A stretch of 64,000 nucleotides of DNA from a virus (lineage: Duplodnaviria; Heunggongvirae; Uroviricota; Caudoviricetes): IMG/VR virus record IMGVR_UViG_3300031555_007106. The stretch is one strand, 5' to 3'. The position numbers were made by a program, and so were the translations under genes. Below the pieces are notes generated by a model that saw only the letters and a list, made by a program, of their open reading frames with translations, did not search any database and was not told the DNA's origin. This document shows positions 4,743 through 58,485 of this stretch, one piece after another. The first letter of the stretch is position 1. Every line of letters starts with the position of its first letter.

Positions 4743-4943
4743 AGGATTCCTCCTTATTTTATTAAAATGTTTGAACTTTTAAAATTTTTCTTCCATTAGG
4801 TAACATCGTGTATATCCATTTTCTCTTCTCTTTTCTTTTCTTTTGTTTATCAAATACTATGTCATATTTTCCGTCATGCATATTCCAAATCGAATGGTCG
4901 AAAATAAAATTTACCATATCTTTCACCTCTTTTTAGCGAATAA

Positions 4944-4971
4944 ACTCCCACCACCTTACAGTGATGGGAGT
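4944..4971 (-). terminator. candidate terminator hairpin downstream of the adhesin gene (11-bp stem ACUCCCAUCAC/GUGGUGGGAGU with one G-U; weak U-tract)
   Basis: actcccaccac-cttaca-gtgatgggagt. Minus-strand tail UUAUUCGC is only moderately U-rich. Confidence 0.45.
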
Positions 4972-5008
4972 ATTCAACTAAGATGTTATATTAACACGAA
5001 AACATCAA

Positions 5009-11000: not shown

Positions 11001-11161
11001 TTATAATCGTCCGTACCACCATGAAGGAAGTTTACGATTACTCTCTTTTTGTCGGTATCTTCGTATGTAGGGTAACTTGCAGCAAATGCACCTAACGTAG
11101 AAGATAGCGACATTACCCCGGCAAGCGAGGCCGCAATGAAGCTTTTTACACTTTTCTTCAT
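5009..11161 (-). CDS. sortase-anchored surface adhesin (2050 aa): signal peptide, N-terminal candidate thioester domain, many Cna-B/SpaA-type repeats (G[AT]xF[KST]LY), Thr/Pro/acidic stalk, C-terminal NPETG + hydrophobic segment + charged tail
   Basis: ORF track. N-terminus MKKSVKSFIAASLAGVMSLSSTLGAFAAS. C-terminus ...DDNPETGAPLNVAGFVAMAAISGIACAASALKGVSERKK. Repeated GATFKLY/GAVFTLY/GAEFTLY/GATFSLY/GAKFGLY segments. Confidence 0.85.
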   Translation of the reverse strand: MKKSVKSFIAASLAGVMSLSSTLGAFAASYPTYEDTDKKRVIVNFLHGGTDDYNAGYNFANSGLSPSTGIGPVAAGNIVKMSVIDDTYLNYSDDPATAGKTTTGQIAYCVAPSEGISTGVYWDSATGFLGEVTDLHGVCKYLEEGTETTNAIYNNISLALSCGLTGDLTYVWQENAWHNNQLEWIEKSVNAGVKGLNKKVSLTATSETTAARIATQLIIWNIVCGWYDDSTAAIKGDEKTALNYFLANFKADEKTDIINTYSYIKTNMITLAGKTTWVYELMNRFDNTQSSSLVFVKNSEEASYAHFTIRYDTTFDMIPENAQAKFAESIFDGLKKLGLSRDDEYSNGYKKSVLQTYFEDDDNASNFIIRERNGNYTIYIPADVIETWAEDETRVVFNLEDVVTTADSSIDKFLGAVGLTHASEQEAIVPRPFMFDFGFNVEERQVPPTGLLKTFDGQEATDPSYYEQCEFVIFDKNEIAYVIATSEIDENGYTVYTFTDETTRVADNATKFVLSSDGSIHFKDNVFLGNLENYQIKEINAPAGYQKNVGKNFEASELEKDEEGHIIFNNEADGDGILYLEKWFVDKDGRTRLTARSEKEYGKAYEAGINLSKFKIKSVATGEYIGASMTEKGIYEYTGAGSTEFILAEDGSLVVDKIPTGAYIVEETTVAPDFWNRNWSDDYVPSCEVAAISVDIANTTLEERIEKAKSNSTENVFKNVYQPWWCNIKIEKDSETRVIEGFEFTIKSDKAVIHKGGEAAIYEETLATDKFGEILFEEIPAYDVDGNYATYTIHEERTNVYYKLCADQTVTVTPGETEKAQFYNYINVAAVGVVKYCEDDEVNGIEFTITGTDPAGIDPTKEYTLTVYRQRNHNSGEIVGYGELDRLPVYNTKGTAQIVYEVKEETPLRYKDQFPVEIVIKVNDDFEPELAVTQVEFENELKRVDYQFVKWCDDILDTVENNGDKSGFKFLIESQNGDYSQIAESDANGLVVFEDLPVYDKNDQLIKYNIIEIDVPDRYRRPEAITDITLNEDGLGNELGKPFNNITKDATLILTKKNEAGATLNGATFKLYEASEFDVMGESASFIASKTTKSDGKVAFEDLAFNKEYVLVETMAPMGYAKLTDPIRFTITENTVIEVENEYYYNLDCVNTQPAKIVVIKKDDETGKTLAGATFKLIQLDANGNEKKIVVEKKNTGLNGKVEFDNLSAGKYKLVEISAPYGYELPENNETIVDVPVFSSNEEAVVEIEIENKGSSNKLSVMKVDNNNIPLQGAVFTLYQITDLGGRVAVATATSDEYGIAVFNTVSSGNYEIEETKAPSGYIRTTEVFPVTVVEGQEEFIPIIIENTPTPLPSLDVMKTDLDTGKILSGAEFTLYDDKTGNAVASATTDENGVASFTDLMFDNVYWIVETKAPVDEEGNAYELLNEEIYVYIADGDTHYTLTTNCTSDLVDNYDNVRIAKEYDGETRPLALIVNVKNYKDKSEFGSLKIVKTAEDNVIENVVFNVKTTLSTGEVLSSTYATDANGEIVINDLLTVDPATGDKLVYEISEVGTPNRYYELPVQKKELKTDDTVTVKFENKLTDEEVGGIEIIKTADDDKVEGITFYVKGSDGNTYTMVTGNNGYASLENLPIYDSENNFISYEISEEELEEYIPVAPVAVERLYKGENIPVTFHNSKEYNEIRLIKVDGSNEPLEGATFSLYKDAGCKQFVASAVSAIDTNEESSTNGKAVVVFSTGITSNTTYYLRETSAPEGYNIKDTVYECVIDANNKTSYRIYNSGADLSETFPVCVNSEAEYFAKVIKTDGTKALEGAKFGLYEDEACTIKLAEDTSKIDSNKDSDTYNMAVVSFAVEVGVTRYIKEISAPAGYELSEKVFRCTVDETGRVLYRVVGTDVDFTTYPTAVNNKTEETTAPVVTTTPDDTTPPVVTTTPGGTRPPVVITTPGDTKPPVTTTPPSDDDEEITTTPPSDDDEEITTTPPSDDDEETTTTPPSDDDEEEKKKDDNPETGAPLNVAGFVAMAAISGIACAASALKGVSERKKEQENEEIIC
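5164..5310 (-). repeat. 4 tandem copies of a 36-bp repeat encoding (I/T)TTTPPSDDDEE in the adhesin stalk
   Basis: ctcttcatcgtc[ag]tccgaaggcgg[ct]gttgttgtt[ag]t x4. Confidence 0.85.
5311..5420 (-). repeat. 3 degenerate ~36-bp tandem repeats encoding TTPGxTxPPVV Thr/Pro linker
   Basis: aggaggctttgtatcaccgggagttgttataacaac / aggaggtcttgtaccgccgggagttgttgtaacaac / gggaggtgtagtatcatcaggtgtagtagttacaac. Confidence 0.7.
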
Positions 11162-13207: not shown

Positions 13208-13708
13208 ATGTGCATGAAATATATTAATGCTAATGTTTCGTTTTTTGAATCTATTTCTATCGAAAACAATATAGTAGCGAAAATGGAACGCTCTTTTGAT
13301 ACTATATTAGCTACTTCCAACGAAAAGGGAGAATACATTGTTTCGGATTTTTCGTTGTTCACTAGTTTAAATGTAATAGGCACCAATAATCCGGACGAAC
13401 AGAAAAATCATGTTTTACATCAAAAGGGTACTCTTAAAGTGATACTTAGGCTGACTAAATGCAGTACAGATGTTTCAAAACAACTTGGAGCTGATGTGGA
13501 TAGTTTTGAATTTGATTTTTCTAAGATAACTCCAGATATGGCTTGTTATCCTTTTTATTGTTTCACTCGTGTTACACATATGAATGGTATTAATGTCCCA
13601 GAACTAGGAGCATATGTAGTTAAAGTTTTGGTTAAAGATGATTTCACAGATGATTATACAATACAATCTATGCGACGATTAATTATAACTGATAAAATTT
13701 CTTCATAA
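13208..13708 (+). CDS. hypothetical protein (166 aa)
   Basis: ORF track. Follows previous gene by 10 nt with AGGTGA RBS. Ends at the bidirectional terminator. Confidence 0.55.
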   Translation: MCMKYINANVSFFESISIENNIVAKMERSFDTILATSNEKGEYIVSDFSLFTSLNVIGTNNPDEQKNHVLHQKGTLKVILRLTKCSTDVSKQLGADVDSFEFDFSKITPDMACYPFYCFTRVTHMNGINVPELGAYVVKVLVKDDFTDDYTIQSMRRLIITDKISS

Positions 13709-13714
13709 AAAAAA

Positions 13715-13752
13715 CAAAAAAACACAGTATCTTTGGATGCTGTGTTTTTCTT
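13715..13752. terminator. bidirectional rho-independent terminator (ends plus-strand operon 12827-13708 and a short minus-strand transcript)
   Basis: aaaaaaacaaaaaa-ACACAGT-atctttggat-GCTGTGT-ttttctttat: A-tract before and T-tract after the hairpin. Confidence 0.75.
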
Positions 13753-13845
13753 TATATGACAGTATAAATCAAGAAAAATTATATGTCTTATCTTGCTCTG
13801 TTTCATTCGGCCAAACAGTATTCATACATATCTCTTTCTGAGACC
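13715..13845 (-). ncRNA. candidate small RNA (~130 nt) from the 13852-13880 promoter to the shared bidirectional terminator; convergent with the plus-strand operon
   Basis: No ORF longer than 14 codons and no RBS. Internal hairpin CUGUUU-ggccgaaug-AAACAG. Confidence 0.35.
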
Positions 13846-13851
13846 ATGCTC

Positions 13852-13880
13852 GTTATACTACAGGTAGTCTCTGATGTCAA
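13852..13880 (-). promoter_or_regulatory. near-consensus promoter TTGACA-17-TATAAC on minus strand, divergent from the 13952 promoter; preceded by TCTATCATACTAT motif
   Basis: Minus strand: CATACTATAAGTAAAAAATATTGACATCAGAGACTACCTGTAGTATAAC. Confidence 0.55.
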
Positions 13881-13951
13881 TATTTTTTACTTATAGTATG
13901 ATAGAAAAAAATACAAGACTAAAAAAATTTTCAAATTTCTATCTTTTCCTA

Positions 13952-13980
13952 TTGACAAATTAGACTAAATCTGTTATAAT
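13952..13980 (+). promoter_or_regulatory. perfect consensus TTGACA-17-TATAAT promoter driving a ~70-nt terminated transcript
   Basis: ttgacaaattagactaaatctgttataat. Terminator at 14026-14059. Confidence 0.7.
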
Positions 13981-13986
13981 AATAAT

Positions 13987-14059
13987 AAGAGATGGTTATG
14001 TATGTTTTTATATACATACCAATTTAGTCCGTCTGCTCCGCAGATGGACTTCTTTTTTT
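13987..14059 (+). ncRNA. candidate small RNA (~72 nt): two stem-loops (GGUUAUGUAUG...AUACAUACC and terminator); only an 11-codon hydrophobic ORF (MVMYVFIYIPI) without usable RBS
   Basis: Consensus promoter + intrinsic terminator bracket a 70-nt non-coding stretch. No plus-strand gene downstream. Confidence 0.45.
14026..14059 (+). terminator. rho-independent terminator of a short plus-strand transcript
   Basis: AGTCCGTCTG-CTCCG-CAGATGGACT (10-bp stem, one G-U) followed by TTCTTTTTTTG. Confidence 0.75.
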
Positions 14060-14099
14060 GCTTTCACTTTCTTTGATTGCATCATTTCTCTGTTATTTA

Positions 14100-14340
14100 T
14101 AATCATTATTATTATAATCGACATCAATTTTATTAATTTTTGATGTCATTATCTTTCAGTTTTTAGACCTATAGCATCAAACAGTATTTTTCCACTATTT
14201 GACTACAACTTCACAATATCACAACTTGACATCAATTTTTAAATCACAATCTCAAAAACACTCCTATTTTGAGATTTACATTTCTATATTACAACATCAA
14301 TATCTCAATTTTGCTATATTTTGAGATTTATATGCAAAGA
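14100..14340. repeat. AT-rich non-coding block with palindromes (GACATCAA-12-TTGATGTC; AATCTCAAAA-9-TTTTGAGATT; ATCTCAA...TTGAGAT) and direct repeats (acaactt x2, tattttgagattta x2, (c)atcaa/atcacaa iterations)
   Basis: Read directly. Lies between convergent terminators at 14059 and 14340. Confidence 0.6.
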
Positions 14341-14378
14341 AAAAGAGGCCCTTCAAAGACCTCTTTTCTTTATTTTGC
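14340..14378 (-). terminator. candidate terminator ending the first minus-strand unit (downstream of 14381..14776)
   Basis: aaagAGAGGCC-cttcaaa-GACCTCTtttctttatttt: 7-bp stem with one mismatch, flanked by A- and T-tracts (bidirectional-looking). Confidence 0.55.
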
Positions 14379-14380
14379 TA

Positions 14381-14776
14381 TTATTGCTGGGTTTCCGCAG
14401 ATAAAATCTCATAAGCTTTTCTCAGCATATCCATATCAAAAAAACCGAAATGACAATCTTCGACGGAGATGCCGAGCTGCTTAGCAAGCTTTTTATATGC
14501 TTTGTTTCTTTTCTTTCTTCTCTCCCGAGGCTCTGAATCCTTCCATTTTAAATCGAATAAATCGTGGCACTTCTTCTTGAGTGTTCTCATTTCTTCATTG
14601 GAAAGAATTCCGTAAGCTTCATCAGGACGAGGTTCGTGTGTACCAACACGGGCACCGCAATTCGTACATAAGTACATTTTCCCACTTCCATAAGGTCTAC
14701 CGTATATTCTAGCATTGTCGGTGAATATAACTTCACCACCGCAAATGTTACATACAGTTGGTCTTAATTCAATCAC
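14381..14776 (-). CDS. zinc-ribbon protein (131 aa; GTG start); CxxCGG...C..CGA pattern, DUF3268-like
   Basis: ORF track. Motif CNICGGEV...YLCTNCGARVGTHEP. First gene of array after terminator at ~14340-14378. Confidence 0.6.
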   Translation of the reverse strand: MIELRPTVCNICGGEVIFTDNARIYGRPYGSGKMYLCTNCGARVGTHEPRPDEAYGILSNEEMRTLKKKCHDLFDLKWKDSEPRERRKKRNKAYKKLAKQLGISVEDCHFGFFDMDMLRKAYEILSAETQQ

Positions 14777-15776: not shown

Positions 15777-16706
15777 TCATCTTTCGTTATCTCCTTCGCA
15801 AATTAACTTTATCAAGTCATCTTCGGTACTTCCAACACTCTTCCCTTTTCTATGATAGATGATGATATTTTCGTCAGAGGAAAAGAATTCCCCGTAAATT
15901 TTCTTCCATGAATTAGCTGTGATGTTCGGAGCTATAAATTTGGTAAACAAGAAAACCTTGTATCCTTTTCTTTTAAGAGCATTATATAATGCCATTGATA
16001 AGATAGGATACTTTTCACCATTATTTATTTCTGCATCACGGAGCATAGAATAATCATTACCGCACAAGCATAATTCTACACCATACCAAGTGTCTTCATT
16101 ATAGCCGCTTGTAAGTTCACTTACAATTTTCGATATCAAAGCTTCGTTTTGAGCTTCAAATTCGATATCATTATTAATAATATTACTCTTATCAAAGACG
16201 ACATCCGCAATCGGGGCTAAACCTTCTGCGGTTGTTACGAGTTTTTCTTTTGCTTTTGCAAATTCATCCATGTTACACTCTTCATTAGCAACATAACAAA
16301 CGAAACTGTCGTATATTGCTTTATTAAGTTCTGTAACTGAATTTTCGCTTGTTTCGGTTAAGAAAACACATGATTTTATGTCTCTTTCCCATAGCTTAGT
16401 AAAAACATACGCCGCTACTTCCTTCATTACATTAACGCTGTCACTTATCCACACAACTGATTTTTCCATATTGTTTCCTTTTGCTTCAACAATCTCAGCA
16501 TTAAAATGCTCATTGCTGAGAAACCTTCCAGCCCAACCGTTATCGAAATTGTCGACAATGTAATCCTTATATTCTTCTGAATATCTGACTGTCCCGATAG
16601 AAGTTACCGCACCCGTTATGTAGTTATTGGTCACTTTCAAGTGGTCTCCAACAGCAATTTGTTTACCGTATCTATCACAAAAAGGAGTATACTGCTTCTC
16701 ATTCAT
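15777..16706 (-). CDS. hypothetical protein (309 aa)
   Basis: ORF 15777..16769. Start moved to MNEKQYTPF (Met22), with AAGGAG upstream and an 8-nt overlap with the upstream gene stop. Confidence 0.6.
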   Translation of the reverse strand: MNEKQYTPFCDRYGKQIAVGDHLKVTNNYITGAVTSIGTVRYSEEYKDYIVDNFDNGWAGRFLSNEHFNAEIVEAKGNNMEKSVVWISDSVNVMKEVAAYVFTKLWERDIKSCVFLTETSENSVTELNKAIYDSFVCYVANEECNMDEFAKAKEKLVTTAEGLAPIADVVFDKSNIINNDIEFEAQNEALISKIVSELTSGYNEDTWYGVELCLCGNDYSMLRDAEINNGEKYPILSMALYNALKRKGYKVFLFTKFIAPNITANSWKKIYGEFFSSDENIIIYHRKGKSVGSTEDDLIKLICEGDNER

Positions 16707-16956
16707 TTCCGGAATCTCCTTCCATAACAGGATTAAAGAAATTGATACAGTCTGCTGCAGATACAACAATTACTGCAGGACAGAAATTCATAACCATACC
16801 CTGATGAATGTCTTCTGCTACGGTCTTTGTGAACTTCATAGCGGGCTTGCCGGGTTCACATAAAAATGACTTTGTAGTGTTGTTAATCTTAGTAACATAA
16901 GATAAGCTACCATCATCAGATACAACAGCTAAAAAATAATCATACTTCTTTCTCAT
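16699..16956 (-). CDS. hypothetical protein (85 aa); first gene after cassette 1
   Basis: ORF 16699..17013. Its first 19 codons (MTTGVLKNCYYFIMKGKLI) are cassette sequence. Real start MRKKYDYF, preceded by AAAGGAAAA. Confidence 0.6.
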   Translation of the reverse strand: MRKKYDYFLAVVSDDGSLSYVTKINNTTKSFLCEPGKPAMKFTKTVAEDIHQGMVMNFCPAVIVVSAADCINFFNPVMEGDSGNE

Positions 16957-17096
16957 AATTAATTTTCCTTTCATAATAAAATAATAGCAATTCTTTAAAA
17001 CTCCAGTCGTCATAAAATAATTGCTATTTATAGTATGGTAAAAAAGCTGTAAAACAAAAAAGCCCGCCGTAGCGAGCCTTTTTCTTTGTTTTGCTA
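16957..17096 (-). repeat. terminator-promoter-RBS cassette copy 1
   Basis: Matches ~130-bp consensus (minus orientation): TAATAGCAATAAC-AAAGAAAAAGGCTCGC-TACG-GCGGGCTTTTTTG-TTTTAC-GCAAACTTTATCATACTAT-TAGTAGCAATTATTTT-ATGACGACTGGAGTTTTAAAG-AATTGCTATTATTTT-ATTATGAAAGGAAA-N-ATG. Confidence 0.85.
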
Positions 17097-17438
17097 TTAT
17101 TCTGCGTACTTAAACCAAACTAAGTAACAATCATCATCTGCAATGAATTCTGCACTTGTATCAGCATTGTATCTCATTTCGCCATCTAAAAGAACTTCGT
17201 CGTCCTCTATAAGCTCATCATAATATTCCATATTATCGTTTCTGCTAATAATATATATAATTTCAAGCTTAGTAAGTTCTTCTTCAGCGTGGTCGTATTT
17301 GTATGCTACATCGCCAATATCACATCTGCGTTCATTCAGATAATAGTCAACTGCATCTTCGGTATTTTCATTGTACTCAGATAAAGTCCACCATTCTTCA
17401 AGAGTGGAGAGCAACATTCTTTCTTCGTTTGTCAACAT
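17097..17438 (-). CDS. strongly acidic small protein (113 aa)
   Basis: ORF track. About 27% D+E. Stop codon lies inside the cassette-1 TAATAG motif. Confidence 0.65.
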   Translation of the reverse strand: MLTNEERMLLSTLEEWWTLSEYNENTEDAVDYYLNERRCDIGDVAYKYDHAEEELTKLEIIYIISRNDNMEYYDELIEDDEVLLDGEMRYNADTSAEFIADDDCYLVWFKYAE

Positions 17439-22799: not shown

Positions 22800-23300
22800 T
22801 TAACCCATTGGTCCATAACTTTGATTTTCAATTCTTGCCAACTTTAAACGCATCTCATACGCTTCTTGGTCTCTTTCGTTCATCCTTTTCCGAAGACTAT
22901 CTCTATCTTCTATCAAAGCATAGATATGCTGAACAGCTCTTCTTAAACCATCAACATTAGCAGGTAAAAGACCTATCGGAGACTGAACGTATTTTAAAGA
23001 TTCATCATTTTTCGCCGTCGATGAAAAAGGAAATTCATCGTTCACCTCAATATCGCTGAAACCCATCAATACGTGAAGACGATAATCATTCATAGCATCG
23101 TCAAGCGTTTCATTCCATTTGTTACAGTTGTCAGGGATATATCCTGTTTCTGTATCGACAACGCAAAAAGCGAAGAAATATTCACTATTTGGCTTATCAA
23201 GCTTGAATTTATGAAAATCCACATAAATACTCCCCGCATTTCCATCGGGAAGACATTCGACAACAACAGGTGTAATTTCATATCTTTCATCAACTTTCAT
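22800..23300 (-). CDS. hypothetical protein (166 aa); first gene after cassette 2
   Basis: ORF track. AAAGGAAA RBS from cassette. Confidence 0.65.
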   Translation of the reverse strand: MKVDERYEITPVVVECLPDGNAGSIYVDFHKFKLDKPNSEYFFAFCVVDTETGYIPDNCNKWNETLDDAMNDYRLHVLMGFSDIEVNDEFPFSSTAKNDESLKYVQSPIGLLPANVDGLRRAVQHIYALIEDRDSLRKRMNERDQEAYEMRLKLARIENQSYGPMG

Positions 23301-23441
23301 AATATTTTCCTTTCATTAATAAAAATAATAGCAATCTATAACTCCAGTCGTCATAAAATAATTGCTACTAATAGTATGATAAAGTTTGCGTAAAACAAAA
23401 AAGCCCGCCGAAGCGAGCCTTTTTTTCTTTGTTATTGCTTA
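23301..23441 (-). repeat. terminator-promoter-RBS cassette copy 2 (UUCG-loop terminator variant; 3-nt shorter spacer)
   Basis: aaaaataatagcaatctataactccagtcgtcataaaataattgctactaatagtatgataaagtttgcgtaaaacaaaaaagcccgccgaagcgagcc... Confidence 0.85.
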
Positions 23442-23918
23442 TTAACCAAACGATTCAACCCGAACATAATTAGGGACGACATCAACATCTAACTCTGCAA
23501 AGTATTTTTTGAAAATTTCGCAAAGTTTTTCTTCAGTTAAGTTCTTTTCAGTTTCGTTCATATACCATGGATGTGTTTCAGGATGCATAATAGCCCAATC
23601 ATATTCCGAACGAACTTCATCAATAAAGACTCCTGTTTCTTTTCTCATGATGTAAGCAATTACGGAATAAAACGAACCGCAACCTGATATATCATATTCA
23701 TCTTCAGCTTCAACATATCCGTCTAACCAATCAGAAAATTCTTCGTTTTCTTCATTCAGATTTTCGATATCAAATCCTTCAGATTCGGCCTTTTCCAGCA
23801 TTTTCTTATAATCTTCCGGTAAATGTTTTTCATAGAAACGTAAAAAAGCCTTAAGTTCTACGCATATTACGTTTATATCAACGCCGTATCCATAGGTAAT
23901 ACTTGTCTGCATACTCAT
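23442..23918 (-). CDS. acidic hypothetical protein (158 aa)
   Basis: ORF track. Stop codon inside cassette-2 TAATAA motif. Confidence 0.65.
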   Translation of the reverse strand: MSMQTSITYGYGVDINVICVELKAFLRFYEKHLPEDYKKMLEKAESEGFDIENLNEENEEFSDWLDGYVEAEDEYDISGCGSFYSVIAYIMRKETGVFIDEVRSEYDWAIMHPETHPWYMNETEKNLTEEKLCEIFKKYFAELDVDVVPNYVRVESFG

Positions 23919-27066: not shown

Positions 27067-27420
27067 TTACGTTAAAACGTTTATTAGACAGATAGCTTGT
27101 CTCTCAGCCTCTTCTTCCGAATCATACAATCTTATCTGATTATTCATTTCTTCGCAGCCCATCTGCTCAAAAATGCACTCAGCGATAACACCGTTAGCTT
27201 CATCACCATACTGTTCTCTGATTTCCGATACACTATCATAATATCCCGAAATATATCTGTAGATATCATCTTCAGAATATTCTTCAAGAGAAATGGTAGC
27301 TTCAACAACATAATAACCGTCAGGATAATCGCGAACTTCAACTAACTGAAATTCAGTAGAGTTGAGGTCTCGGCGCCACTGAAGGTCATCTGTTCTTATC
27401 CATCCTCTGGGTAATTTCAT
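27067..27420 (-). CDS. acidic hypothetical protein (117 aa); first gene after cassette 3
   Basis: ORF track. Confidence 0.6.
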   Translation of the reverse strand: MKLPRGWIRTDDLQWRRDLNSTEFQLVEVRDYPDGYYVVEATISLEEYSEDDIYRYISGYYDSVSEIREQYGDEANGVIAECIFEQMGCEEMNNQIRLYDSEEEAERQAICLINVLT

Positions 27421-27553
27421 ATTTATCCTTTCCTTTCATAAAAATAAGCAATAATTTTTAAACTCCGTTCATCATAAAAATATTGCTATACATAGTATGG
27501 TAAAAAAGCCATAAAACAAAAAAAGCCCACCGAAGTGAGCTTCTTTATTGCTA
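27421..27553 (-). repeat. terminator-promoter-RBS cassette copy 3 (divergent; terminator stem carries compensatory GCUCAC/GUGGGC change)
   Basis: ...aaactccgttcatcataaaaatattgctatacatagtatggtaaaaaagccataaaacaaaaaaagcccaccgaagtgagc... Confidence 0.8.
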
Positions 27554-27982
27554 TTATTTTTCTATTATTCTTCTTCGTACGCTTTCCGCCTGTTCCATAG
27601 TCAGAAGATTATTGTTCTTTGCCATATCCTCATTATACCCAAGTTCAGTGCAAATTTTAGCTATCGAAGTTGTTGTCACTCCGAATTCTTCCGCTAGAGC
27701 TTTCATTGAAACAGTCGGCTTTGTTCCTTCTGCAACGCTCGTTTCGGTGTTATCAACTGTCTTTTTCTTGCGTGTAGACTTAGGTAACTTTGTTTCTGCC
27801 TGAGGAGCATCGAAAACTTCGTTTTTCGCATTTTCAAGAAGCTCTTCAAGCATCTCCTTTTTATCCTTGAGGCAATCCTTACGTGCATTCATTATTGCAA
27901 TTTCCGTTTCGCAAGCGGCAATCTCCTTTTTGCACGTTTCAAATTCTTTTGTTATTTTTTCAATAAGAGTCATAATACTCAC
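27554..27982 (-). CDS. coiled-coil protein with C-terminal helix-turn-helix-like segment (142 aa); candidate DNA-binding regulator
   Basis: C-terminus SMKALAEEFGVTTTSIAKICTELGY...LTMEQAESVRRR. Stop codon inside cassette-3 TAATAG. Confidence 0.6.
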   Translation of the reverse strand: MSIMTLIEKITKEFETCKKEIAACETEIAIMNARKDCLKDKKEMLEELLENAKNEVFDAPQAETKLPKSTRKKKTVDNTETSVAEGTKPTVSMKALAEEFGVTTTSIAKICTELGYNEDMAKNNNLLTMEQAESVRRRIIEK

Positions 27983-31472: not shown

Positions 31473-31487
31473 CTGTGTGTGAATTGC

Positions 31488-32477
31488 TTATTCTGTAATA
31501 TCAACAATGGGTGTAGCGTCACTCTGGACCTGAGGAAGCTTACCATCCCACTTCTCAACGTATGTTTCAATCTTACGGAGTTCGACAAGCGAAGGCGTAA
31601 GCGATTCGGCAATCTTCTTATTAGCTTCTGCTTCTGCTTCAGCGGCAATTCTTACTACTTCTGCATCTGCCTGAGCCTTAATCTTTGCTGCATCAGCTTC
31701 AGCCTGTGCTTTTGCAATCTCAACTTCGTTAAGATTCTGCTGTGTGGTAAGAAGCTGTTCAGAGCTGAACTTTTCGTCAATAGCTGCCTGAATAGCTGCG
31801 TTTTCGTAAGATATACCTTCCTTCATACCAAGAACTGTAATTGTTACGCCGTATTCGCTGAAATGAGTCTTTACGTTTGTAACAACTTCATTCATTATAT
31901 TGGTCTTATTAGCCTGTAAATCTGCGATATTGTACTTTCCTACAGCCTTATTGAATTCATCCTCAACCATAGCACGAATATCATTGTCGATTACTGTTTC
32001 GAGAGGCGTGTTATTGTAACGGTATAAGAACTTAGTTGCATTAGCTTCGTCAATCTGAGCAGAGCAGTTCATACCTACATAAACGCCGATACCATCAAGA
32101 GATTCGCCAAAGATAGCACTGTTCTGTGAAGTCTCAGCGTCAACTCCTGATACCCACTCTCTTGTAACAGGCTTACGCTCTACAATTATAAGCTTTGCGG
32201 ACGCGCGATATTCGCCCTGATTATCCATCATACCTGTCTGAACCCAACGATGCGGAATCTGAATTTCCTTTGTGGCAACCTTTGCCTGTTCGAGTAATTC
32301 TTCAGACTCAAAAGATGCCTGTTCACTTGTATCTCCGGTTAAAGGGATAAGGAACGCCGTCTGGCTTGCTTCAATTGTTACAAATTCAGGGGTATCGTAA
32401 GGTCTGCAACCTGCAAGGCTTATTGTGCAGACAAGAAGTCCGATTACTGCGATGATTTTTTTAATTGTTTTTCTCAT
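31488..32477 (-). CDS. SPFH/band-7 (prohibitin/flotillin-like) domain lipoprotein (329 aa)
   Basis: Lipobox MRKTIKKIIAVIGLLVCTISLAGC. C-terminal AQAEADAAKIKAQADAEVVRIAAEAEAEANKKIAE coiled-coil typical of SPFH proteins. Hairpin at ~31448-31472 follows. Confidence 0.65.
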   Translation of the reverse strand: MRKTIKKIIAVIGLLVCTISLAGCRPYDTPEFVTIEASQTAFLIPLTGDTSEQASFESEELLEQAKVATKEIQIPHRWVQTGMMDNQGEYRASAKLIIVERKPVTREWVSGVDAETSQNSAIFGESLDGIGVYVGMNCSAQIDEANATKFLYRYNNTPLETVIDNDIRAMVEDEFNKAVGKYNIADLQANKTNIMNEVVTNVKTHFSEYGVTITVLGMKEGISYENAAIQAAIDEKFSSEQLLTTQQNLNEVEIAKAQAEADAAKIKAQADAEVVRIAAEAEAEANKKIAESLTPSLVELRKIETYVEKWDGKLPQVQSDATPIVDITE

Positions 32478-32830: not shown

Positions 32831-33187
32831 TTACTCTTTTGATAAACTCTGAAGAGTTTGCCAATACGGCATTACGCACTTTTTGAGGTAGCCGCATTCG
32901 TCAATATCAATGTAAGCCTCATTGCCGGATTTGATATCCCCTTCAGACAAGCCCCACAGCATATCGGTGAAGAACAATTCTAAAAGAGGAGATTCAATAT
33001 CAACCAATGTATACCAGATGTGTACGAGAGGTTTAATTGTATCACTACAACTTTCTTCAGTAGGTTCACCGAACGCTGCCACAGTTTCAGGAAATCTTTC
33101 TTTAAATTCTTCAACTGTTAAAGCATATCGTTTGTAGTATCCCTTATAGTTCTCTTCAACAATTACTGCTTTAATGTTTTCTGCCAT
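32831..33187 (-). CDS. hypothetical protein (118 aa); first gene after cassette 4
   Basis: ORF 32831..33205 begins in the cassette RBS (ATGAAAGGAAAG). Start moved to MAENIKAVIV. Confidence 0.6.
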   Translation of the reverse strand: MAENIKAVIVEENYKGYYKRYALTVEEFKERFPETVAAFGEPTEESCSDTIKPLVHIWYTLVDIESPLLELFFTDMLWGLSEGDIKSGNEAYIDIDECGYLKKCVMPYWQTLQSLSKE

Positions 33188-33322
33188 TTTCTTCTTTCCT
33201 TTCATTAAAATAATAGCAATTCTTTAAAACTCCAAACGTCATAAAACAATCGCTACTAATAGTATGATAAAAAAGCCGTAAAACAAAAAAGCCCGCCAAA
33301 GCGGACTTTTTCGCAATATTGC
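33188..33322 (-). repeat. terminator-promoter-RBS cassette copy 4 (terminator stem GUCCGC-UUUG-GCGGGC, compensatory)
   Basis: aaaataatagcaattctttaaaactccaaacgtcataaaacaatcgctactaatagtatgataaaaaagccgtaaaacaaaaaagcccgccaaagcggac... Confidence 0.8.
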
Positions 33323-34042
33323 TTAAAAATTATTCATAGCTTGTTCTTTTTCATAGAGTGCCTGATATTTATTGACATACGCTTCAAGCTTTTTTATAAA
33401 TTTCTCAGCGTCTTTTTTTATGTTGTCATTATCCTCCTCAAATAATTTTTCGAGGTTTTCCATTTCATTATCTCGGAATGCCTCGATTAAATCTCTCTTC
33501 ATTAATGCATATTTGTTCTCAGAAAAATGCCCTAAAGAGTAATGTGCAGAAGGTGTGTGTAAAACCTTGTAATTTACAACTCTCAATCCGGTTGTAGGAC
33601 TATTAGCTTGCACTTTTGGCACTTCACAACTTTCTGTTGTAAAGACAATAATCAGTTCATCCTCTTCTTTCTTATCTTTACCGATAATATAAATACTGTT
33701 ATCTTTATCCAAATTTCTTTTTTCTGCTTGCCTTGAATTATAAAAGCCGCATTTAAGCGGTATACCCATAGACATAAATACATCATTAAGTACATCTGAC
33801 ACACAATGAGAAACACTACTGTTTTTGTAAGAGGACACTATTCGAAGTCTCTGGTTGATAATAGAGTCAAAACCTATACCAACAAGAAACTCCCTAATCG
33901 TCATTCGGTAGAAATCTTCAATTTCCTTTACATCTTTTCTCGGATACAGTTTTCGCAATCGAAAATCCTTTTTAGACTTTTCTATAGTTTTAAAAAAACC
34001 ATCTTCCGCAACAAGCACTTTCTTAGTTTCATACATGCCCAT
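33323..34042 (-). CDS. hypothetical protein (239 aa)
   Basis: ORF track. Stop precedes cassette 4. Confidence 0.65.
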   Translation of the reverse strand: MGMYETKKVLVAEDGFFKTIEKSKKDFRLRKLYPRKDVKEIEDFYRMTIREFLVGIGFDSIINQRLRIVSSYKNSSVSHCVSDVLNDVFMSMGIPLKCGFYNSRQAEKRNLDKDNSIYIIGKDKKEEDELIIVFTTESCEVPKVQANSPTTGLRVVNYKVLHTPSAHYSLGHFSENKYALMKRDLIEAFRDNEMENLEKLFEEDNDNIKKDAEKFIKKLEAYVNKYQALYEKEQAMNNF

Positions 34043-35491: not shown

Positions 35492-36142
35492 TCAAGCTTT
35501 ATAAGATTTTGTATTATTCTCAATTTCTTTTCCTTTAGAGATAAGTTCATCAATAACCTCAATCTTAGCTTTTCTTTCCGCCGATTCACGATTATTTGTA
35601 ACTACAAAAACGAAGAAGATAAGGAATATCACAACTGTAATGGATATAAGAATTATATTTCTTCCATCTGCAACTGCATTTACTTCAGTATCAATATCAG
35701 TTTCTGCTTTATTTATTGTATCTGAAATAGCCTGTTCCATTTCATTCTCATTGTAGTATTTAGTGCTACGCGTTGTGAAATAGCAATTTTCCGATACATG
35801 CTGAGGATACTGCACAACAATTTCATAAACCATAAATGTATCACCTACATTAAACGGTTTATCTGTATAATATGAACCAATATCTCCATCCTCTGCAGTT
35901 GGTTCAATATAGTATTTTCTACTTGTTGTGAAATCTTCTCCTATCTTAACAAATTCAGATTCTTCAACAATATCACTACATATCATTTCTGCAGATGATA
36001 ACTTTATTGACATCTCTGATTTCATGCGACTCCTGTCATTTTCGGCCATTGTAGGTATAACAAACCAGCAGCCTAAAAAGACACCGCAGAGTACGATGAA
36101 CGTAACGACCCAAACTACAATTAAATTCTTCTTTGATAACAT
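35492..36142 (-). CDS. membrane-anchored protein (216 aa; N-terminal TM, C-terminal TM)
   Basis: ORF 35492..36196 starts in cassette 5. Start moved to MLSKKNLIVVWVVTFIVLCGVFLG after AAAAGGAGAA RBS. Confidence 0.6.
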   Translation of the reverse strand: MLSKKNLIVVWVVTFIVLCGVFLGCWFVIPTMAENDRSRMKSEMSIKLSSAEMICSDIVEESEFVKIGEDFTTSRKYYIEPTAEDGDIGSYYTDKPFNVGDTFMVYEIVVQYPQHVSENCYFTTRSTKYYNENEMEQAISDTINKAETDIDTEVNAVADGRNIILISITVVIFLIFFVFVVTNNRESAERKAKIEVIDELISKGKEIENNTKSYKA

Positions 36143-36282
36143 TTTAATTCTCCTTTTAAAATAATTTAAGCAATTTTTAGAACTCCATAACGTCATAAAA
36201 TACTGCTATATATAGTATGAAAGTTTTCTTATAAAATAAAAAGCCCGCCGTAGCGAGCTTTTCTTTGCTATTATCTATTATT
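36143..36282 (-). repeat. terminator-promoter-RBS cassette copy 5 (most divergent)
   Basis: ...aagcaatttttagaactccataacgtcataaaatactgctatatatagtatgaaagttttcttataaaataaaaagcccgccgtagcgagc... Confidence 0.7.
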
Positions 36283-36567
36283 TTACACTTTTGCAATTTC
36301 AACAACATCAGATTTTAATTTTCTGCGAATATCCATCTTATTCAAAGCATACATTTCGATAACGCCATTGTGTTTAGTTTTAACACAATACTTATTCATA
36401 CACTCGTAATAAGGAATAGTCCAGCCCGACTGTTTAAAAACAGGTTCGGTTGTGGCAATATGCAATTCTTTTAATGGTTCTTCATTGCCATTATACCAAG
36501 CTTTTATAGCTTGTGGAATTCTCGATTTTAAAACCGTTTCAATTCCTTCTGTTTTGCATTGAGTCAT
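36283..36567 (-). CDS. hypothetical protein (94 aa)
   Basis: ORF track. Confidence 0.55.
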   Translation of the reverse strand: MTQCKTEGIETVLKSRIPQAIKAWYNGNEEPLKELHIATTEPVFKQSGWTIPYYECMNKYCVKTKHNGVIEMYALNKMDIRRKLKSDVVEIAKV

Positions 36568-37863: not shown

Positions 37864-38058
37864 TTAGGGTTCACAATGGTTACGTGCAGGACAATAACAG
37901 CAATTAAACCAATTAATACAGTGGAAATTGCCATTTTCATCAAATGCTGCCGCTCCTTCTGCTTCAGTTCCAAGTACAGCCTGATAATTAAGATAATCTT
38001 TTTCAGGGACTTTTCCTTCTGCATATGCTCGTTCAAGCTCCTCAATTGTAAGATACAT
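37864..38058 (-). CDS. Cys-rich small protein (64 aa); first gene after cassette 6
   Basis: ORF 37864..38115 starts inside the cassette. Start moved to MYLTIEELERAY after AAAGGAAG RBS. Confidence 0.5.
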   Translation of the reverse strand: MYLTIEELERAYAEGKVPEKDYLNYQAVLGTEAEGAAAFDENGNFHCINWFNCCYCPARNHCEP

Positions 38059-38202
38059 TATTACGCTTCCTTTCATTAATAAAATAATAGCAATCTTTAA
38101 GACTCCAGTCGTCAATAAATAATTGCTACTAATAGTATGATGAAAAAGGTATAAAACAAAAAAAAGCCCGCCGTAGCGAGCTTTTCTGTTATTGCTATTA
38201 CA
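38059..38202 (-). repeat. terminator-promoter-RBS cassette copy 6
   Basis: taaaataatagcaatctttaagactccagtcgtcaataaataattgctactaatagtatgatgaaaaaggtataaaacaaaaaaaagcccgccgtagcgagc... Confidence 0.85.
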
Positions 38203-43419: not shown

Positions 43420-43953
43420 TCAATCGAGGGTTATCTCCTTACCTTCTTCGTTGTAGGTCAATCGGGTAACAACGAAATATTCTCCGTTTCTGCGTTCAAT
43501 CTTTGTAAGAGTTCCGTTATCAAAGTCATAATCGATATATTTAGTGACGTTTTTTTCTTTTTCACCAAAACCGGAATGAACAATCGCGGGTCTGAAATTC
43601 TTACTGTCGTGACGACGCTCAAACCATCTCCCCTGCTTATCAAGCTCTTCGAAACGAGCACAAATATTCTTCTGAACAAGATTAGCTGTCGCTTCATGTT
43701 TGAAAATCTTAATACGTCTCACAAAACCCTCTGAATTATACACGTCAACTGCATACTCTTCAGTTATAAGGCCCATAATACGCATATAAGTTCTCTTTGG
43801 AAGGCCTGTTTCTTTACAGATAACATTGATAAACTCTTCGTTATCAATATCCATACATTCAAATGCATGATGTGTATTGTTCACCATAAGAATGAATGCC
43901 TTTAACACATCAGCACATTTTTCTTCTTCCATTTCTTTTAACAACCAATTCAT
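43420..43953 (-). CDS. hypothetical protein (177 aa); first gene after cassette 7
   Basis: ORF track. Confidence 0.6.
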   Translation of the reverse strand: MNWLLKEMEEEKCADVLKAFILMVNNTHHAFECMDIDNEEFINVICKETGLPKRTYMRIMGLITEEYAVDVYNSEGFVRRIKIFKHEATANLVQKNICARFEELDKQGRWFERRHDSKNFRPAIVHSGFGEKEKNVTKYIDYDFDNGTLTKIERRNGEYFVVTRLTYNEEGKEITLD

Positions 43954-44092
43954 AATTTAATTCCTTTCATAATAAAAATAATAGCAATTCTTTAAAAACT
44001 CCAATCGTCATAAAATAATTGCTACTAATAGTATGATAAAGTTTGCGTAAAACAAAAAAGCCCGCCGTAGCGAGCCTTTTTTGTTATTGCTA
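43954..44092 (-). repeat. terminator-promoter-RBS cassette copy 7 (near-identical to copy 2)
   Basis: ...ataatagcaattctttaaaaactccaatcgtcataaaataattgctactaatagtatgataaagtttgcgtaaaacaaaaaagcccgccgtagcgagcc... Confidence 0.85.
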
Positions 44093-44242
44093 TTATATAG
44101 GACAGGTATCCTCTCGTTCTTTTTCTCCTTCTTCCACCTCAGGAGAAATAACAGTATTTGTTAATGTACATTTGTACCCAACAACATCCATTAATTCTCC
44201 ATCAATTATAGATTTTCTGTATTCGCATTCTTTGCACTTCAT
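44093..44242 (-). CDS. small Cys-containing peptide (49 aa: MKCKECEYRKSIIDGELMDVVGYKCTLTN...EDTCPI); below ORF-track cutoff
   Basis: Hand-found. GGAGG 7 nt upstream of ATG at 44242. Stop TAA is inside the cassette-7 TAATAG motif. Confidence 0.35.
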   Translation of the reverse strand: MKCKECEYRKSIIDGELMDVVGYKCTLTNTVISPEVEEGEKEREDTCPI

Positions 44243-48854: not shown

Positions 48855-49310
48855 TTAGTAGACACAATGAACACCTGTTTCATTGCCATCTATATCGTAC
48901 TCAATAGCAAGTATTCTGAGCTCGCACCCCTCAGGAACTTCGTCGTCATACTCCTCAATAAAGCTTTCGGCCTCATTGAAAGTATCGAAAGCCGCGATTT
49001 GTTCCACAAAATTCCACTTGTTGGTTTTTTCATTGTAACGAGCAATTTCAACAGCATATTCTGCATATTCCATGATTTCAACATACTCATCTTTTGATAT
49101 GTCACATATAGAACGTATGTAGGAGACAAACTCTTCGGCAGAAAGAGAACAATTTTTAAATTTCGGATTATTTTCACGAATATCTCTTATTATTCTACTC
49201 ATCCAATATTCTTCATCTTCTACGTCAGACAAGTCAGAAGGATAGTTTTCTTTAGGACAAAACTTGCAGTATTCCTTGACAAGCTTCGCATAAATCTTTT
49301 CGTTGTTCAT
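48855..49310 (-). CDS. hypothetical protein (151 aa); first gene after cassette 8
   Basis: ORF 48855..49367 starts in cassette (MTTGVLKNCYYF...). Start moved to MNNEKIYAKL after AAAGGAAAA RBS. Confidence 0.6.
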   Translation of the reverse strand: MNNEKIYAKLVKEYCKFCPKENYPSDLSDVEDEEYWMSRIIRDIRENNPKFKNCSLSAEEFVSYIRSICDISKDEYVEIMEYAEYAVEIARYNEKTNKWNFVEQIAAFDTFNEAESFIEEYDDEVPEGCELRILAIEYDIDGNETGVHCVY

Positions 49311-49490
49311 AACTAATTTTCCTTTCGCAATAAAATAATAGCAATTCTTTAAAACTCCAGTCGTCATAAAATAATTGCTATTTATAGTATGGTAAAAAAG
49401 CCGTAAAACAAAAAAGCCCGCACACGGCGAGCTTTTCTTTTTGTTGCTACTATTTTTACAGTGTTTTCAAATTATCCACAGAGGCGTAAC
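49311..49490 (-). repeat. terminator-promoter-RBS cassette copy 8 (near-identical to copy 1; hairpin variant gcccgcacacggcgagc; ~45-nt extra spacer before upstream stop)
   Basis: aataaaataatagcaattctttaaaactccagtcgtcataaaataattgctatttatagtatggtaaaaaagccgtaaaacaaaaaagcccgcacacggcgagc... Confidence 0.8.
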
Positions 49491-51703: not shown

Positions 51704-51994
51704 TTAATTTGCGGTATGTATCAGAGTTACATTTTCTGCGTGACAAAGATATATGTCGCCGCTTTCCATCGTTATCTGAAGCTGGTCGCTTTCATAATCA
51801 CACCATTCAGTTATATTACCTTCAACAACAACACCGTTCTGAAGACTTATGATAGCTTTATCATAAGTATAAGTTGTGTCAAACAAAGTCTTGTTGCCGG
51901 AACAGTAAGATATAAGTAATGCAATTGCTACACCAATCACACCACAAATCATTACTAAAACAAATACAGTTAAAAACTTATCCTTTTTCTTCAT
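51704..51994 (-). CDS. N-terminally membrane-anchored small protein (96 aa); first gene after cassette 9
   Basis: MKKKDKFLTVFVLVMICGVIGVAIALLISYCSG. Confidence 0.55.
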   Translation of the reverse strand: MKKKDKFLTVFVLVMICGVIGVAIALLISYCSGNKTLFDTTYTYDKAIISLQNGVVVEGNITEWCDYESDQLQITMESGDIYLCHAENVTLIHTAN

Positions 51995-52154
51995 AAAATT
52001 TATCCTTTCATAATAAAAATAATAGCAATTCTTTAAAAACTCCAGTCGTCATAAAATAATTGCTATTAATAGTATGATAAAGTTTGCATAAAACAAAAAA
52101 GCCCGCCGAAGCGAGCCTTTTTCTTTGTTATTGCTATTATTAAAATATTAGTTA
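51995..52154 (-). repeat. terminator-promoter-RBS cassette copy 9
   Basis: aaaaataatagcaattctttaaaaactccagtcgtcataaaataattgctattaatagtatgataaagtttgcataaaacaaaaaagcccgccgaagcgagcc... Confidence 0.85.
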
Positions 52155-57758: not shown

Positions 57759-57988
57759 GCCTCAAACAAATGAGCAATTGAATCATAACCGGGCTTGTTA
57801 CTACCGAAAGATTCGACGTGATAAAGAATAGTTGTTAAAAGACTTTCGTCATTATTAAGGTCAACAAGTTCTCTTTCTTCGTAGTCAGGCTGAAAATTTT
57901 GTTCTCTTGCGATTTCCTCGTAGATATCAAGCAGAATTTTCTGCTCAGCATAAGATACCTCAACGTATTTGCCATAATACTCGTTCAT
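57755..57988 (-). CDS. hypothetical protein (77 aa); first gene after cassette 10
   Basis: ORF track. Confidence 0.5.
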   Translation of the reverse strand: MNEYYGKYVEVSYAEQKILLDIYEEIAREQNFQPDYEERELVDLNNDESLLTTILYHVESFGSNKPGYDSIAHLFEA

Positions 57989-58125
57989 AGTTTATTTTCC
58001 TTTCATAATAAAATAATAGCAATTCTTAAAACTCCTATCGTCAATAAAATATTGCTATTAATAGTATGATAAAGTTTGCATAAAACAAAAAAGCCCGCCG
58101 AAGCGAGCTTTTTCTATTATTGCTA
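57989..58125 (-). repeat. terminator-promoter-RBS cassette copy 10 (near-identical to copy 9)
   Basis: aataaaataatagcaattcttaaaactcctatcgtcaataaaatattgctattaatagtatgataaagtttgcataaaacaaaaaagcccgccgaagcgagc... Confidence 0.85.
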
Positions 58126-58485
58126 TTATTTTTGTGTTTTACACACAGTTTTTGCTATTTTGTAGCCGTAGTTTTGAGTTAAAGTGCATCCAGCCTTGCT
58201 AATTAGCCTTTTGATACGGTTAATAAGCAAGAACTTAAACTTTATCTTCTCTTGAAACATCAGTATAAAACAAACATCAATAGTTCCGTTTGTATGAACG
58301 ATAAACCTTGCATCATCTACTGCATTGTGTTCGAAGTTAGATACTATCCAACCAGCAATATCTGAACAGGTTTTATTGATAAGTTTTTCATCTTTGGCTA
58401 ATAAGCAGGTTGTTAAGACATCTTCTTCAGCCGTTTTTCTTAAATTAAGAACAATTTCTGTTTTTATCTTGCTGTTCGTACACAT
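58126..58485 (-). CDS. hypothetical protein (~119 aa; start uncertain)
   Basis: ORF 58126..58572 overlaps upstream gene. Start at MCTNSKIKTEIV (AAGGAAG upstream) preferred. Stop inside cassette-10 TAATAG. Confidence 0.45.
   Translation of the reverse strand: MCTNSKIKTEIVLNLRKTAEEDVLTTCLLAKDEKLINKTCSDIAGWIVSNFEHNAVDDARFIVHTNGTIDVCFILMFQEKIKFKFLLINRIKRLISKAGCTLTQNYGYKIAKTVCKTQK

Follow-up and report, generated by a model that had tools for sequence, protein, structure and literature searches.

We analysed a 64,000-nucleotide (nt) stretch of DNA from a tailed phage (IMG/VR virus record IMGVR_UViG_3300031555_007106, Caudoviricetes), referred to here as the window, in which similar cassettes recur in the gaps between small genes. 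Our subject is motif A, a 12-nt element at the 5' end of the cassette that often holds the stop codon of the gene before it and that may pair, as RNA, with a leader element at the other end of the same transcript. The window lies within the Joint Genome Institute (JGI) contig Ga0307249_10001143 (193,036 bp), and the same proteins are found again on a 196.6-kb contig. From ~14 kb to 64 kb all genes are carried by the minus strand, which is the sense strand, so that the cassette 5' end is the one with the higher plus-strand coordinate. The gene products are mostly small ORFans, largely without a match in Pfam or PHROG; the non-ORFan products are two DNA methyltransferases, a DUF3268 protein, a DUF4314 protein and a nucleoside-kinase ortholog. 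The only named protein relatives are SPO1-like Bacillus phage homologs of one window protein, at ~35% identity, and homologs of 50% identity lie on contigs of 100-230 kb binned as Ruminococcaceae or Clostridia metagenome-assembled genomes. A megablast search against a phage collection gave no match, no T4-like genes were seen and no tRNAs were found. The context is Firmicute-like (AAAGGA or GGAG ribosome-binding sites (RBS), 35% GC), and the genetic code is standard, with no sign of stop-codon recoding. TAA is the stop codon in 95 of 138 genes, 17 of 138 have a second in-frame stop, and gaps between genes are usually 10-30 nt. An all-against-all blastp comparison found few paralogs, so the transcription units are not recent duplicates. 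The DNA probably belongs to a large phage (~193 kb) of a Clostridia host, with the window covering an early or hyperplastic, ORFan-rich region.

We identified 13 intergenic cassettes of ~150 nt, ten in the window (c1-c10) and three (c11-c13) in the 8.8 kb upstream of the window on the same 193-kb contig (L023). They are spread over ~58 kb of small genes and are ~70-96% identical to one another, and their flanking genes are unrelated ORFans. In the sense direction each cassette consists of motif A, a terminator, the promoter-like octamer CATACTAT, arm B, a loop, arm B', an RBS and an ATG. Motif A has the consensus AATAATAGCAAT and is followed in all 13 cassettes by an A-rich spacer of 5-12 nt and the terminator stem. 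The terminator consensus is GCTCGC-TWCG-GCGGGC, then T6-8 and GTTTTA, with an 11-12-nt spacer before the octamer; in a terminator scan the cassette terminators ranked first, the c9 and c10 copies being the top matches, and the c3 stem carries a compensatory A-T pair. Arm B, (A/T)TAGCAAT, is a shorter copy of motif A and the hairpin partner of arm B', whose consensus ATTGCTATTATT is the exact reverse complement of motif A. About 10 nt after B' (which lies 8-20 nt from the RBS) comes AAAGGA, with the ATG 9-11 nt further on in all ten window copies. Matches to the 12-mer of motif A with at most two mismatches number 50, against 20 +/- 4 expected, and those with at most one mismatch lie almost only in cassettes. 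No Rfam family matched anywhere in the window at gathering thresholds.

Cassette-bearing relatives amounted to three short contigs, L028 (79% protein identity; Logan SRR14160767), L030 and L032; L028 cassettes are numbered here with the prefix R. Single-sequence folds predicted a 5' leader hairpin that leaves the RBS unpaired in all 18 leaders (13 from this phage and five from L028, L030 and L032), the B:B' hairpin forming an interrupted helix of ~18 bp. Two of the L028 hairpins have arms that differ in sequence yet still pair (AGCUUAUU/AAUAAGCU in R2 and CGAUAUUUUUAAU/AUUAAGAAUAUUG in R3); RNAalifold, run on a MAFFT alignment of the 18 leaders in which these diverged arms are misaligned, gave no consensus. 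The apical loop GAYGANNGGAG (e.g. 16999-17012, minus strand), with its Shine-Dalgarno (SD)-like GGAG, is kept in 18 of 18 copies, even where the stems have diverged, and may act as a stabiliser SD that is not translated or as a binding site for a protein of the CsrA type, with GGA in a loop. Some genes downstream of a cassette have in-frame ATGs within it, in the hairpin loop or directly before the RBS (16699-17013, 48855-49367 and 32831-33205, minus strand); open reading frame (ORF) finders and the source annotation thus extend these genes, giving 104 instead of the RBS-consistent 85 amino acids (aa) after c1 and 124 instead of 118 aa after c4.

The octamer occurs 17 times in the window and L023, 13 times in cassettes and four times elsewhere. 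The four cassette-free copies (11217, 11275, 12437 and 13900) each lie upstream of a gene, and on this ground we infer that the octamer is a sense-strand promoter, which would read TTGTTT-16-TACTAT, with TACTAT the likely -10 and the T-rich stretch before it overlapping the terminator tail. On the opposite strand, the sequence TCGTCA-16-TATAGT (plus strand 49361-49388; equivalents in c1 and c13) has 9 of 12 matches and faces an A-tract/T-tract terminator ~25 nt away; such an antisense promoter could produce a tiny antisense RNA that ends in B'-like sequence. The cassettes are also mosaic: the terminator loops TACG and TTCG occur with the spacers GCAAACTTTAT and GGCTTTTTTAC in all four combinations, and the discriminator variants are likewise mosaic across copies, which suggests exchange between copies.

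It had been noted in the initial annotation that the cassette 5' end supplies the stop codon of the upstream gene in at least six of ten copies, and this holds with more copies. We defined the stop offset as the position relative to the G of GCAA in motif A. The upstream ORF ends TAA TAG CAA, an offset of -5, in c1, c3, c7 and c10, as had been described, and also in c12, c13 and a cassette-free copy of motif A that we call A0; in c1 the minus strand at 17085-17099 reads TAA TAG CAA AAC AAA G. The endings TAA TAA GCA in c2 and TAA GCA ATA in c4, both given correctly, correspond to offsets of -6 and -3. In c5 (-17), c6 (-10), c8 (-46) and c9 (-23) the stop lies upstream of the motif, again in agreement, with gaps of 0-36 nt to the motif edge, and c11 (-17) is similar. 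The stop is thus inside motif A in 9 of 14 copies in this phage (13 cassettes and A0). Because the genes upstream of c5 and c11 are paralogous (69% identity), their junctions were counted once. Of the 13 independent junctions that remain, nine have an in-motif stop (p=0.009, where uniform frame use would give 1/3), and with the relatives included 12 of 17 do (p=0.0019). Among the relatives' junctions, nrdG of L028 ends TAA TAG TAG, and an A-like TAAGCAATTC overlaps the stop in orthologs of the element at 31481-31490 as well as in the window; L032 has one junction reading TAA GCAAAT and one with the stop flush with the motif and out of frame; and the L030 copy of the c3 junction has gained an extra in-frame TAA. 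When reading frame was tabulated against motif for all of these copies, as had been suggested, the bias stayed above chance: the stop frame of the motif was used at 14 of 17 independent junctions (p=4.7e-5 against 1/3), and the last sense codon was NAA at six of the seven canonical in-motif junctions, compared to 13% NAA codons overall (p=3e-5). The in-frame stop bias is real and non-random.

Variant copies of the motif show where the partner of A lies. Motif A differs in c2 (TAATAAGCAAT) and c4 (TTTTTAAGCAAT), and B' differs in c3 (ATTATTGCTTAT) and c5 (ATTGCTTAAAT); in both cases the variant A is matched by the variant B' one cassette further upstream, where the unit ending at this A has its leader. 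The A of c2 and the B' of c3 have AATAAGCAATAA (12 nt) in common, the A of c4 and the B' of c5 TTTAAGCAAT (10 nt), and there is no match between A and B' within c2 or within c4. For each of the 13 cognate pairs RNAduplex predicted a 10-14-bp duplex, at -11.4 to -16.2 kcal/mol, compared to -7.2 (c2), -7.6 (c4), -7.2 (c5) and -10.8 kcal/mol (c3) for own-cassette pairs. When partners were permuted, the cognate energies stood out both as a sum (p=0.004) and in the weakest pair (p=0.006), and all other fixed offsets between A and B' were poorer.

Covariation was measured in a GC-anchored ungapped alignment of 17 cognate A/B' pairs, with 500 partner shuffles as reference. Paired cells made up 75.8% (68.6 +/- 1.3 after shuffling), 20 cells in nine pairs were changed on both sides (7.7 +/- 2.3), and the covariation score was 0.207 (0.096); none of the 500 shuffles matched any of the three measures, and slid controls were lower. 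The same score for own-cassette pairs was 0.075 compared to 0.080 after shuffling, a value reached by 306 of 500 shuffles. Among the cells that were not Watson-Crick pairs, 12 were G·U and three A·C, an excess that favours sense-strand RNA. In L028, three of three A elements pair best with their cognate 5' untranslated region (UTR): B' of R2 (GCUACUAUUAU) and A of R3 (AUAAUAGUAGC) share a double change from A-U to G-C, and B' of R3, GAAUAUUG-ACUU, pairs with A of R4, AAG-CAAUAUUC. Furthermore, the orthologous A of a 239-aa gene pairs with the L028 leader in a different register than with the c5 leader of the window. Motif A also overlaps stops before two hairpins (at A0 and at 31481-31490) that bear no relation to the terminator of the cassette, so it belongs with the 3' end of the transcription unit and not with the cassette. 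For AGCAATTC of the 31481-31490 element, a complementary counterpart, GAATTGCT, lies within the c4 B' region. When two cassette-free units were put through a 5'/3' duplex test, they gave one value at background and one driven by a GC-rich terminator. Judging from the covariation, motif A (AAUAAUAGCAAU in RNA) appears to be a functional RNA element in its own right, and more than the left edge of a cassette.

We propose that the stop-overlapping motif A is the 3' element of a unit-specific 5'/3' pairing of the mRNA, embedded in PeSL-like cassettes, and we give this proposal an even chance of being correct. It has been previously reported that PeSLs (promoter-early stem-loops) are terminator-promoter-SD units of T4-type phages that flank ORFans and shuffle via mini-circles (Arbiol et al. 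2010, PMC2839356; Comeau et al. 2014, PMC4122927). In the phage studied here, the cassettes, each with terminator, promoter-like element, leader hairpin and RBS, would split transcription into short units. Each mRNA would start at or just before B, fold a protective hairpin at its 5' terminus, carry B' (AUUGCUAUUAUU) beside a strong RBS and end with A and then the terminator hairpin, so that a duplex of 10-14 bp could form between A and B', at opposite ends of one molecule. In one frame, the complement of the U-rich B' reads UAA-UAG. The other two frames of A stay open through the terminator, and the 3' UTR in this phage is almost nil; ORFs in those two frames would be translated through A into the terminator stem. 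Selection would then favour ORFs that end in the UAA-UAG frame of A, with a tandem stop and NAA as the last sense codon as a result. With A as the complement of B' and almost no 3' UTR, in-frame stops would follow without recombination, and they are more likely a by-product of the end-pairing design than a recombination scar. PeSL-like recombination between cassettes probably keeps the copies similar and moves whole units, as a separate layer. We also suggest, more tentatively and at somewhat less than an even chance, that every early unit is an end-paired, closed-loop mRNA, built from a portable leader hairpin with B' as its address and a last gene that ends in the matching A. The stop inside the duplex would then couple translation termination of the last cistron to end-pairing, with possible effects on mRNA stability, RNase access and ribosome recycling.

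Several observations weigh against this proposal. The transcription start, the 3' ends and the A:B' duplex are all predictions. Most copies of A and B' are identical, and the covariation comes from about five variant units (c3-c2, c5-c4, R2-R3, R3-R4 and R4-R5) in closely related genomes; no cassette turned up outside a narrow clade in the collections scanned, so that the sample of junctions cannot grow. For the canonical copies alone, the stop lies in the motif at 7 of 11 junctions (p=0.04), modestly above 1/3. The octamer has no sigma-70 match in the sense orientation, and the antisense TCGTCA-16-TATAGT scores better (three copies). Canonical A has B as a competitor for almost the same stretch of B' (9-12 nt), and the predicted local hairpin (~-13 to -14 kcal/mol) should beat a duplex formed over kilobases unless the start site truncates B. 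Inheritance of units as blocks, from donors with another variant of the motif, would also link A to the upstream B' and could imitate the covariation, provided that both 5' crossovers fell inside the 30-nt loop between B and B'; it leaves unexplained that two different leaders each match the same orthologous A.

The initial annotation regarded the in-frame junction as a footprint of cassette-mediated gene replacement or insertion: the cassettes would be portable, and crossovers in or at motif A would bring in or replace modules and thereby fix the ORF junction in frame. We consider this an unlikely origin for the in-frame stop, although parts of the argument stand. The terminators are, as was claimed, not independently evolved; they are homologous copies of one cassette. 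Cassette-mediated replacement gains from the similarity of the 13 cassettes beside unrelated ORFans, from the mosaic loop, spacer and discriminator variants and from the frame bias itself, and partial AATAATAG duplicates before A in c3, c5, c9 and c11 are of a kind that slippage might leave. Synteny between L028 and the window starts exactly after cassette R3 (at c5), with homology resuming around the RBS of a 151-aa gene, and upstream of R3 the nrdDG genes, a GGDEF gene and a methyltransferase gene of L028 have no homolog in 72.8 kb of this phage. In addition, PeSL mini-circles and PeSL-linked indels are documented in T4-type phages (PMC2839356, PMC4122927). Recombination within motif A itself fares worse. 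Motif A is also found with unrelated, non-cassette terminator hairpins, and it covaries with the B' at the far 5' end of its unit, not with its own cassette, and with sequence beyond the shared motif, a covariation that a crossover at A does not predict. The chimeric C-termini and orphan 3' fragments that had been expected beside the cassettes were searched for, and only the full-length c5/c11 paralogs were found. Most indels relative to L028 and L030 lie away from the cassettes, and the differences outside cassettes comprise extra genes of 222, 68, 88 and 109 aa and a 235-aa variant (three short contigs compared). A length of 12 nt is very short for homologous recombination, there is no recombinase among the Pfam calls (72 kb), and orthologous junctions drift by small local changes, as at c3 in L030. 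The PeSL crossovers that have been mapped lie between the -10 and the ATG, not at the 5' edge (PMC2839356). Cassette exchange is likely to have occurred, and it leaves the in-frame stop unexplained.

Three further explanations do without recombination. A, B and B' might be three copies of a 12-bp DNA operator, similar to a stoperator, with the stop overlap a result of tight site packing. One 12-mer in two direct copies and one inverted copy around a promoter-like element in every cassette would suit this, as would the concentration of near-exact copies in cassettes, but a single consensus predicts no unit-specific variants that are complementary between A and a distal B'. Moreover, the substitutions are biased to G·U-compatible changes, and the hairpin arms of R2 and R3 change in sequence with pairing kept; we consider an operator very unlikely. 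Pfam scans of the genes near c1 showed no DNA-binding regulator, sigma factor or recombinase. Ordinary compaction offers a slight chance of an explanation: in an AT-rich, TAA-preferring genome, an A/T-rich element placed after genes would often overlap a stop, and the frame would have no meaning. The stop usage and short gaps described above fit this, as does the small excess of in-motif stops among the canonical copies, whereas the use of the stop frame and the NAA last codon do not, and motif A is conserved for a reason unrelated to the stop, as the complement of B'. Finally, A might pair on read-through transcripts with the B' of its own cassette and form a stalk for RNase III-like processing that trims both mRNAs. 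Canonical A and B' are perfect 12-nt inverted repeats ~110 nt apart, the B:B' hairpin is itself a long interrupted helix, and early mRNAs of phage SP82 are known to be processed by RNase III (cited in PMC4838370). Against such a stalk, own-cassette pairing is weak in c2, c4 and c5 and below the canonical range in c3, and own-cassette covariation, unlike that of cognate pairs, is not above shuffles, so that we regard it as most improbable. Two mobile-element identities were rejected. A miniature inverted-repeat transposable element does not fit, as no target-site duplication was found, the left flanks vary, the right flank is always the T-rich RBS region and A also occurs alone. An integron attC site does not fit, as no recombinase was found among the Pfam calls (72 kb) and each unit has its own promoter-like element and terminator.

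The proposed end-pairing has a parallel in Bacillus subtilis. There, Braun, Durand and Condon (2017, PMC5737220) described a 14-nt pairing within the hbs mRNA, between a segment that follows directly on the 5' hairpins and one that directly precedes the terminator; compensatory mutants confirmed this pairing, which limits attack by RNase Y and RNase J1. The bacterial examples of 5'/3'-UTR pairing listed in 2021 were only RNAIII, icaR and hbs, of which icaR and RNAIII are from Staphylococcus aureus (PMC7821165). Like hbs, the phage units have a leader with a 5' hairpin and a strong SD in a Firmicute-like context, a 3' element directly upstream of the terminator (13 of 13 cassettes as well as A0 and 31481-31490), and a predicted end complementarity of 10-14 bp that is kept by two-sided changes, here in few independent events. 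Unlike hbs, a single phage repeats the arrangement over at least 13 units in succession, with variants specific to single units; the phage 3' element overlaps the stop and last sense codon, while the hbs element lies in the 3' UTR; and the phage B' overlaps the 3' arm of a predicted hairpin, so that two partners, A and B, compete for it, an overlap that depends on the start site.

The cassettes resemble PeSLs in being ~100-150-bp intergenic repeats with terminator stem-loop, promoter-like element, SD and start codon among small ORFans, in their mosaic copies and in at least one synteny break with a relative at a cassette (R3/c5). They differ in that the phage is not of the T4-type lineage, its nearest named homologs being in SPO1-like Bacillus phages (~35%); in that the octamer CATACTAT has no sigma-70 consensus match, though its position and orientation fit; and in having an extra leader hairpin with a conserved loop and the A/B/B' triple, with A and B' covarying across the unit, which is undescribed for PeSLs. 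The stoperators of cluster A mycobacteriophages (L5 repressor sites) are 12-13-bp motif copies in short intergenic gaps, often over stop or start codons; they are asymmetric, lie in one orientation to transcription and are DNA sites for one repressor. Unlike these, the phage motif occurs in both orientations within each cassette, and its variants are complementary between distant partners and tolerate G·U-type changes. Integron attC sites are imperfect inverted repeats that follow each gene module, often over the stop codon. The cassettes differ from them in lacking a detected integrase, in their own promoter-like element and terminator, and in the covarying partner at the other end of the module.

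The coordinates of the cassettes and related elements in the window are collected in Table 1.

Table 1. Positions in the window of the cassettes, the parts of c1 and the copies of motif A outside cassettes.
Feature	Position	Strand	Description
A0 (cassette-free motif A)	14374..14385	minus	Overlaps stop of the DUF3268 gene (14383-14381); followed by a different terminator; matches B' of c1
c1 RBS and start	16954..16971	minus	AAAGGA 16971-16966; ATG 16956-16954 of the gene that opens the next unit; unpaired in every predicted fold
c1 5'-UTR hairpin	16980..17029	minus	Predicted; B 17029-17018; loop with GACGACTGGAG; B' 16991-16980 (ATTGCTATTATT)
c1 octamer	17030..17037	minus	Invariant CATACTAT, promoter-like
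c1 terminator	17056..17077	minus	Intrinsic, GCTCGC-TACG-GCGGGC and T6; A-tract upstream, could work bidirectionally
c1 motif A	17090..17101	minus	AATAATAGCAAA; holds stop TAA 17099-17097 and in-frame TAG 17096-17094; reverse complement of B' consensus
113-aa ORF	17097..17438	minus	Last gene of the unit beginning at c2; ends within motif A
c2	23298..23445	minus	A variant TTAATAAGCAAT, stop TAA TAA GCA; 12-nt match to variant B' of c3
c3	27418..27558	minus	A canonical, stop in motif; B' variant ATTGCTTATTTT (27452-27441)
A-like TAAGCAATTC	31481..31490	minus	Overlaps stop of 329-aa ORF 31488-32477; followed by a non-cassette hairpin
c4	33185..33329	minus	A variant TTTTTAAGCAAT, stop TAA GCA; 10-nt match to variant B' of c5
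c5	36140..36275	minus	Most diverged; B' ATTGCTTAAATT; stop 17 nt before G, in frame; upstream gene paralogous to that of c11
c6	38056..38202	minus	Stop flush with motif, other frame (-10)
c7	43951..44097	minus	Stop of 49-aa ORF 44093-44242 (good RBS) inside motif
c8	49308..49454	minus	A AATAGTAGCAAC (A-to-G, pairs G·U with B'); stop 46 nt upstream, other frame
c9	51992..52141	minus	Stop 23 nt upstream, in frame
c10	57986..58130	minus	Stop inside motif

A number of additional features were observed in this phage and its relatives. The partial AATAATAG-like duplicates, which correspond to the 5' half of A, lie just upstream of A at 27558-27569 (c3), 36276-36284 (c5), 52142-52157 (c9) and 8057-8068 of L023 (c11), and could be slippage products or remnants of earlier junctions. 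Downstream of c6, two adjacent small paralogous genes (37676-37774 and 37885-37983, 56% identity) contain the B'-like 12-mers ATTGCTCTTATT and ATTGCTGTTATT in their coding sequence. The 222-aa protein (28920-29588) is 44% identical to the N-terminal 130 residues of a 295-aa protein (38907-39794); its gene is absent from L028 and L030, an indel away from cassettes. In L028, an Eco57I-like methyltransferase, a GGDEF protein and nrdD-nrdG form separate units bounded by cassette variants (381-7471) and occupy the place of unrelated ORFans in this phage; the cassette R1 of L028 (2994-3088) has the terminator and promoter without A, B and B'.

Exact-pattern scans for the cassette in IMG/VR, JGI metagenome contigs and GTDB genomes gave single chance matches, without a cassette, and no cassette was found in the more distant relatives detected by protein similarity: L026 and L027 (IMG/VR, 45-47% identity), L031, and L033, a 182-kb contig from the same sample (50% identity, 48% GC). 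L027 and L033 carry ordinary repeated promoters of the sigma-A type. In L027 (45% identity), a 127-nt repeat of its own, with a consensus sigma-A promoter, leader and RBS, occurs at 2711-2837 and 8273-8399 (91% identical), and early regions of this kind may often have repeated leader modules. In the first part of the window, an apparent ORF desert at 1-4778 proved to be a single long minus-strand ORF that leaves the window, and 36-nt tandem repeats at 5169-5440 lie inside a 2050-aa protein with SpaA/Cna_B-type domains (minus ORF 5009-11161), which may be an adhesin-like tail or fibre protein. The last early unit is directly followed by ~700 nt at 13650-14370 (minus strand as sense) that lack a convincing ORF and hold the inverted and direct repeats AATCTCAAAAT, ATTGAGAT and TTGATGT; a near-consensus promoter, TTGACA-17-TATAAC (13880-13852), directly follows a copy of CATACTAT (13900-13893). 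This segment could be a regulatory region, a replication origin or a small RNA.

For annotation, these findings mean that a non-coding element constrains both stop codons and last residues, and that ATGs within the cassettes mislead gene callers into longer ORFs. A 2021 review left the wider use of the 5'/3' pairing mechanism as a question (PMC7821165). The phage appears to reuse this principle, with at least 13 operons in a row that have matched ends and with variants that amount to natural compensatory mutants. If the proposal is true, it would be the first case, among phages and bacteria alike, of 5'/3'-UTR pairing used in a systematic and modular way. The phage would then be a compact natural test bed for the effects of end-pairing on mRNA decay and translation in Gram-positive hosts, and would point to a rule for designing stable synthetic operons. 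The pairing would also give a functional reason, beyond recombination, for the conserved intergenic cassettes in the hyperplastic regions of phages.

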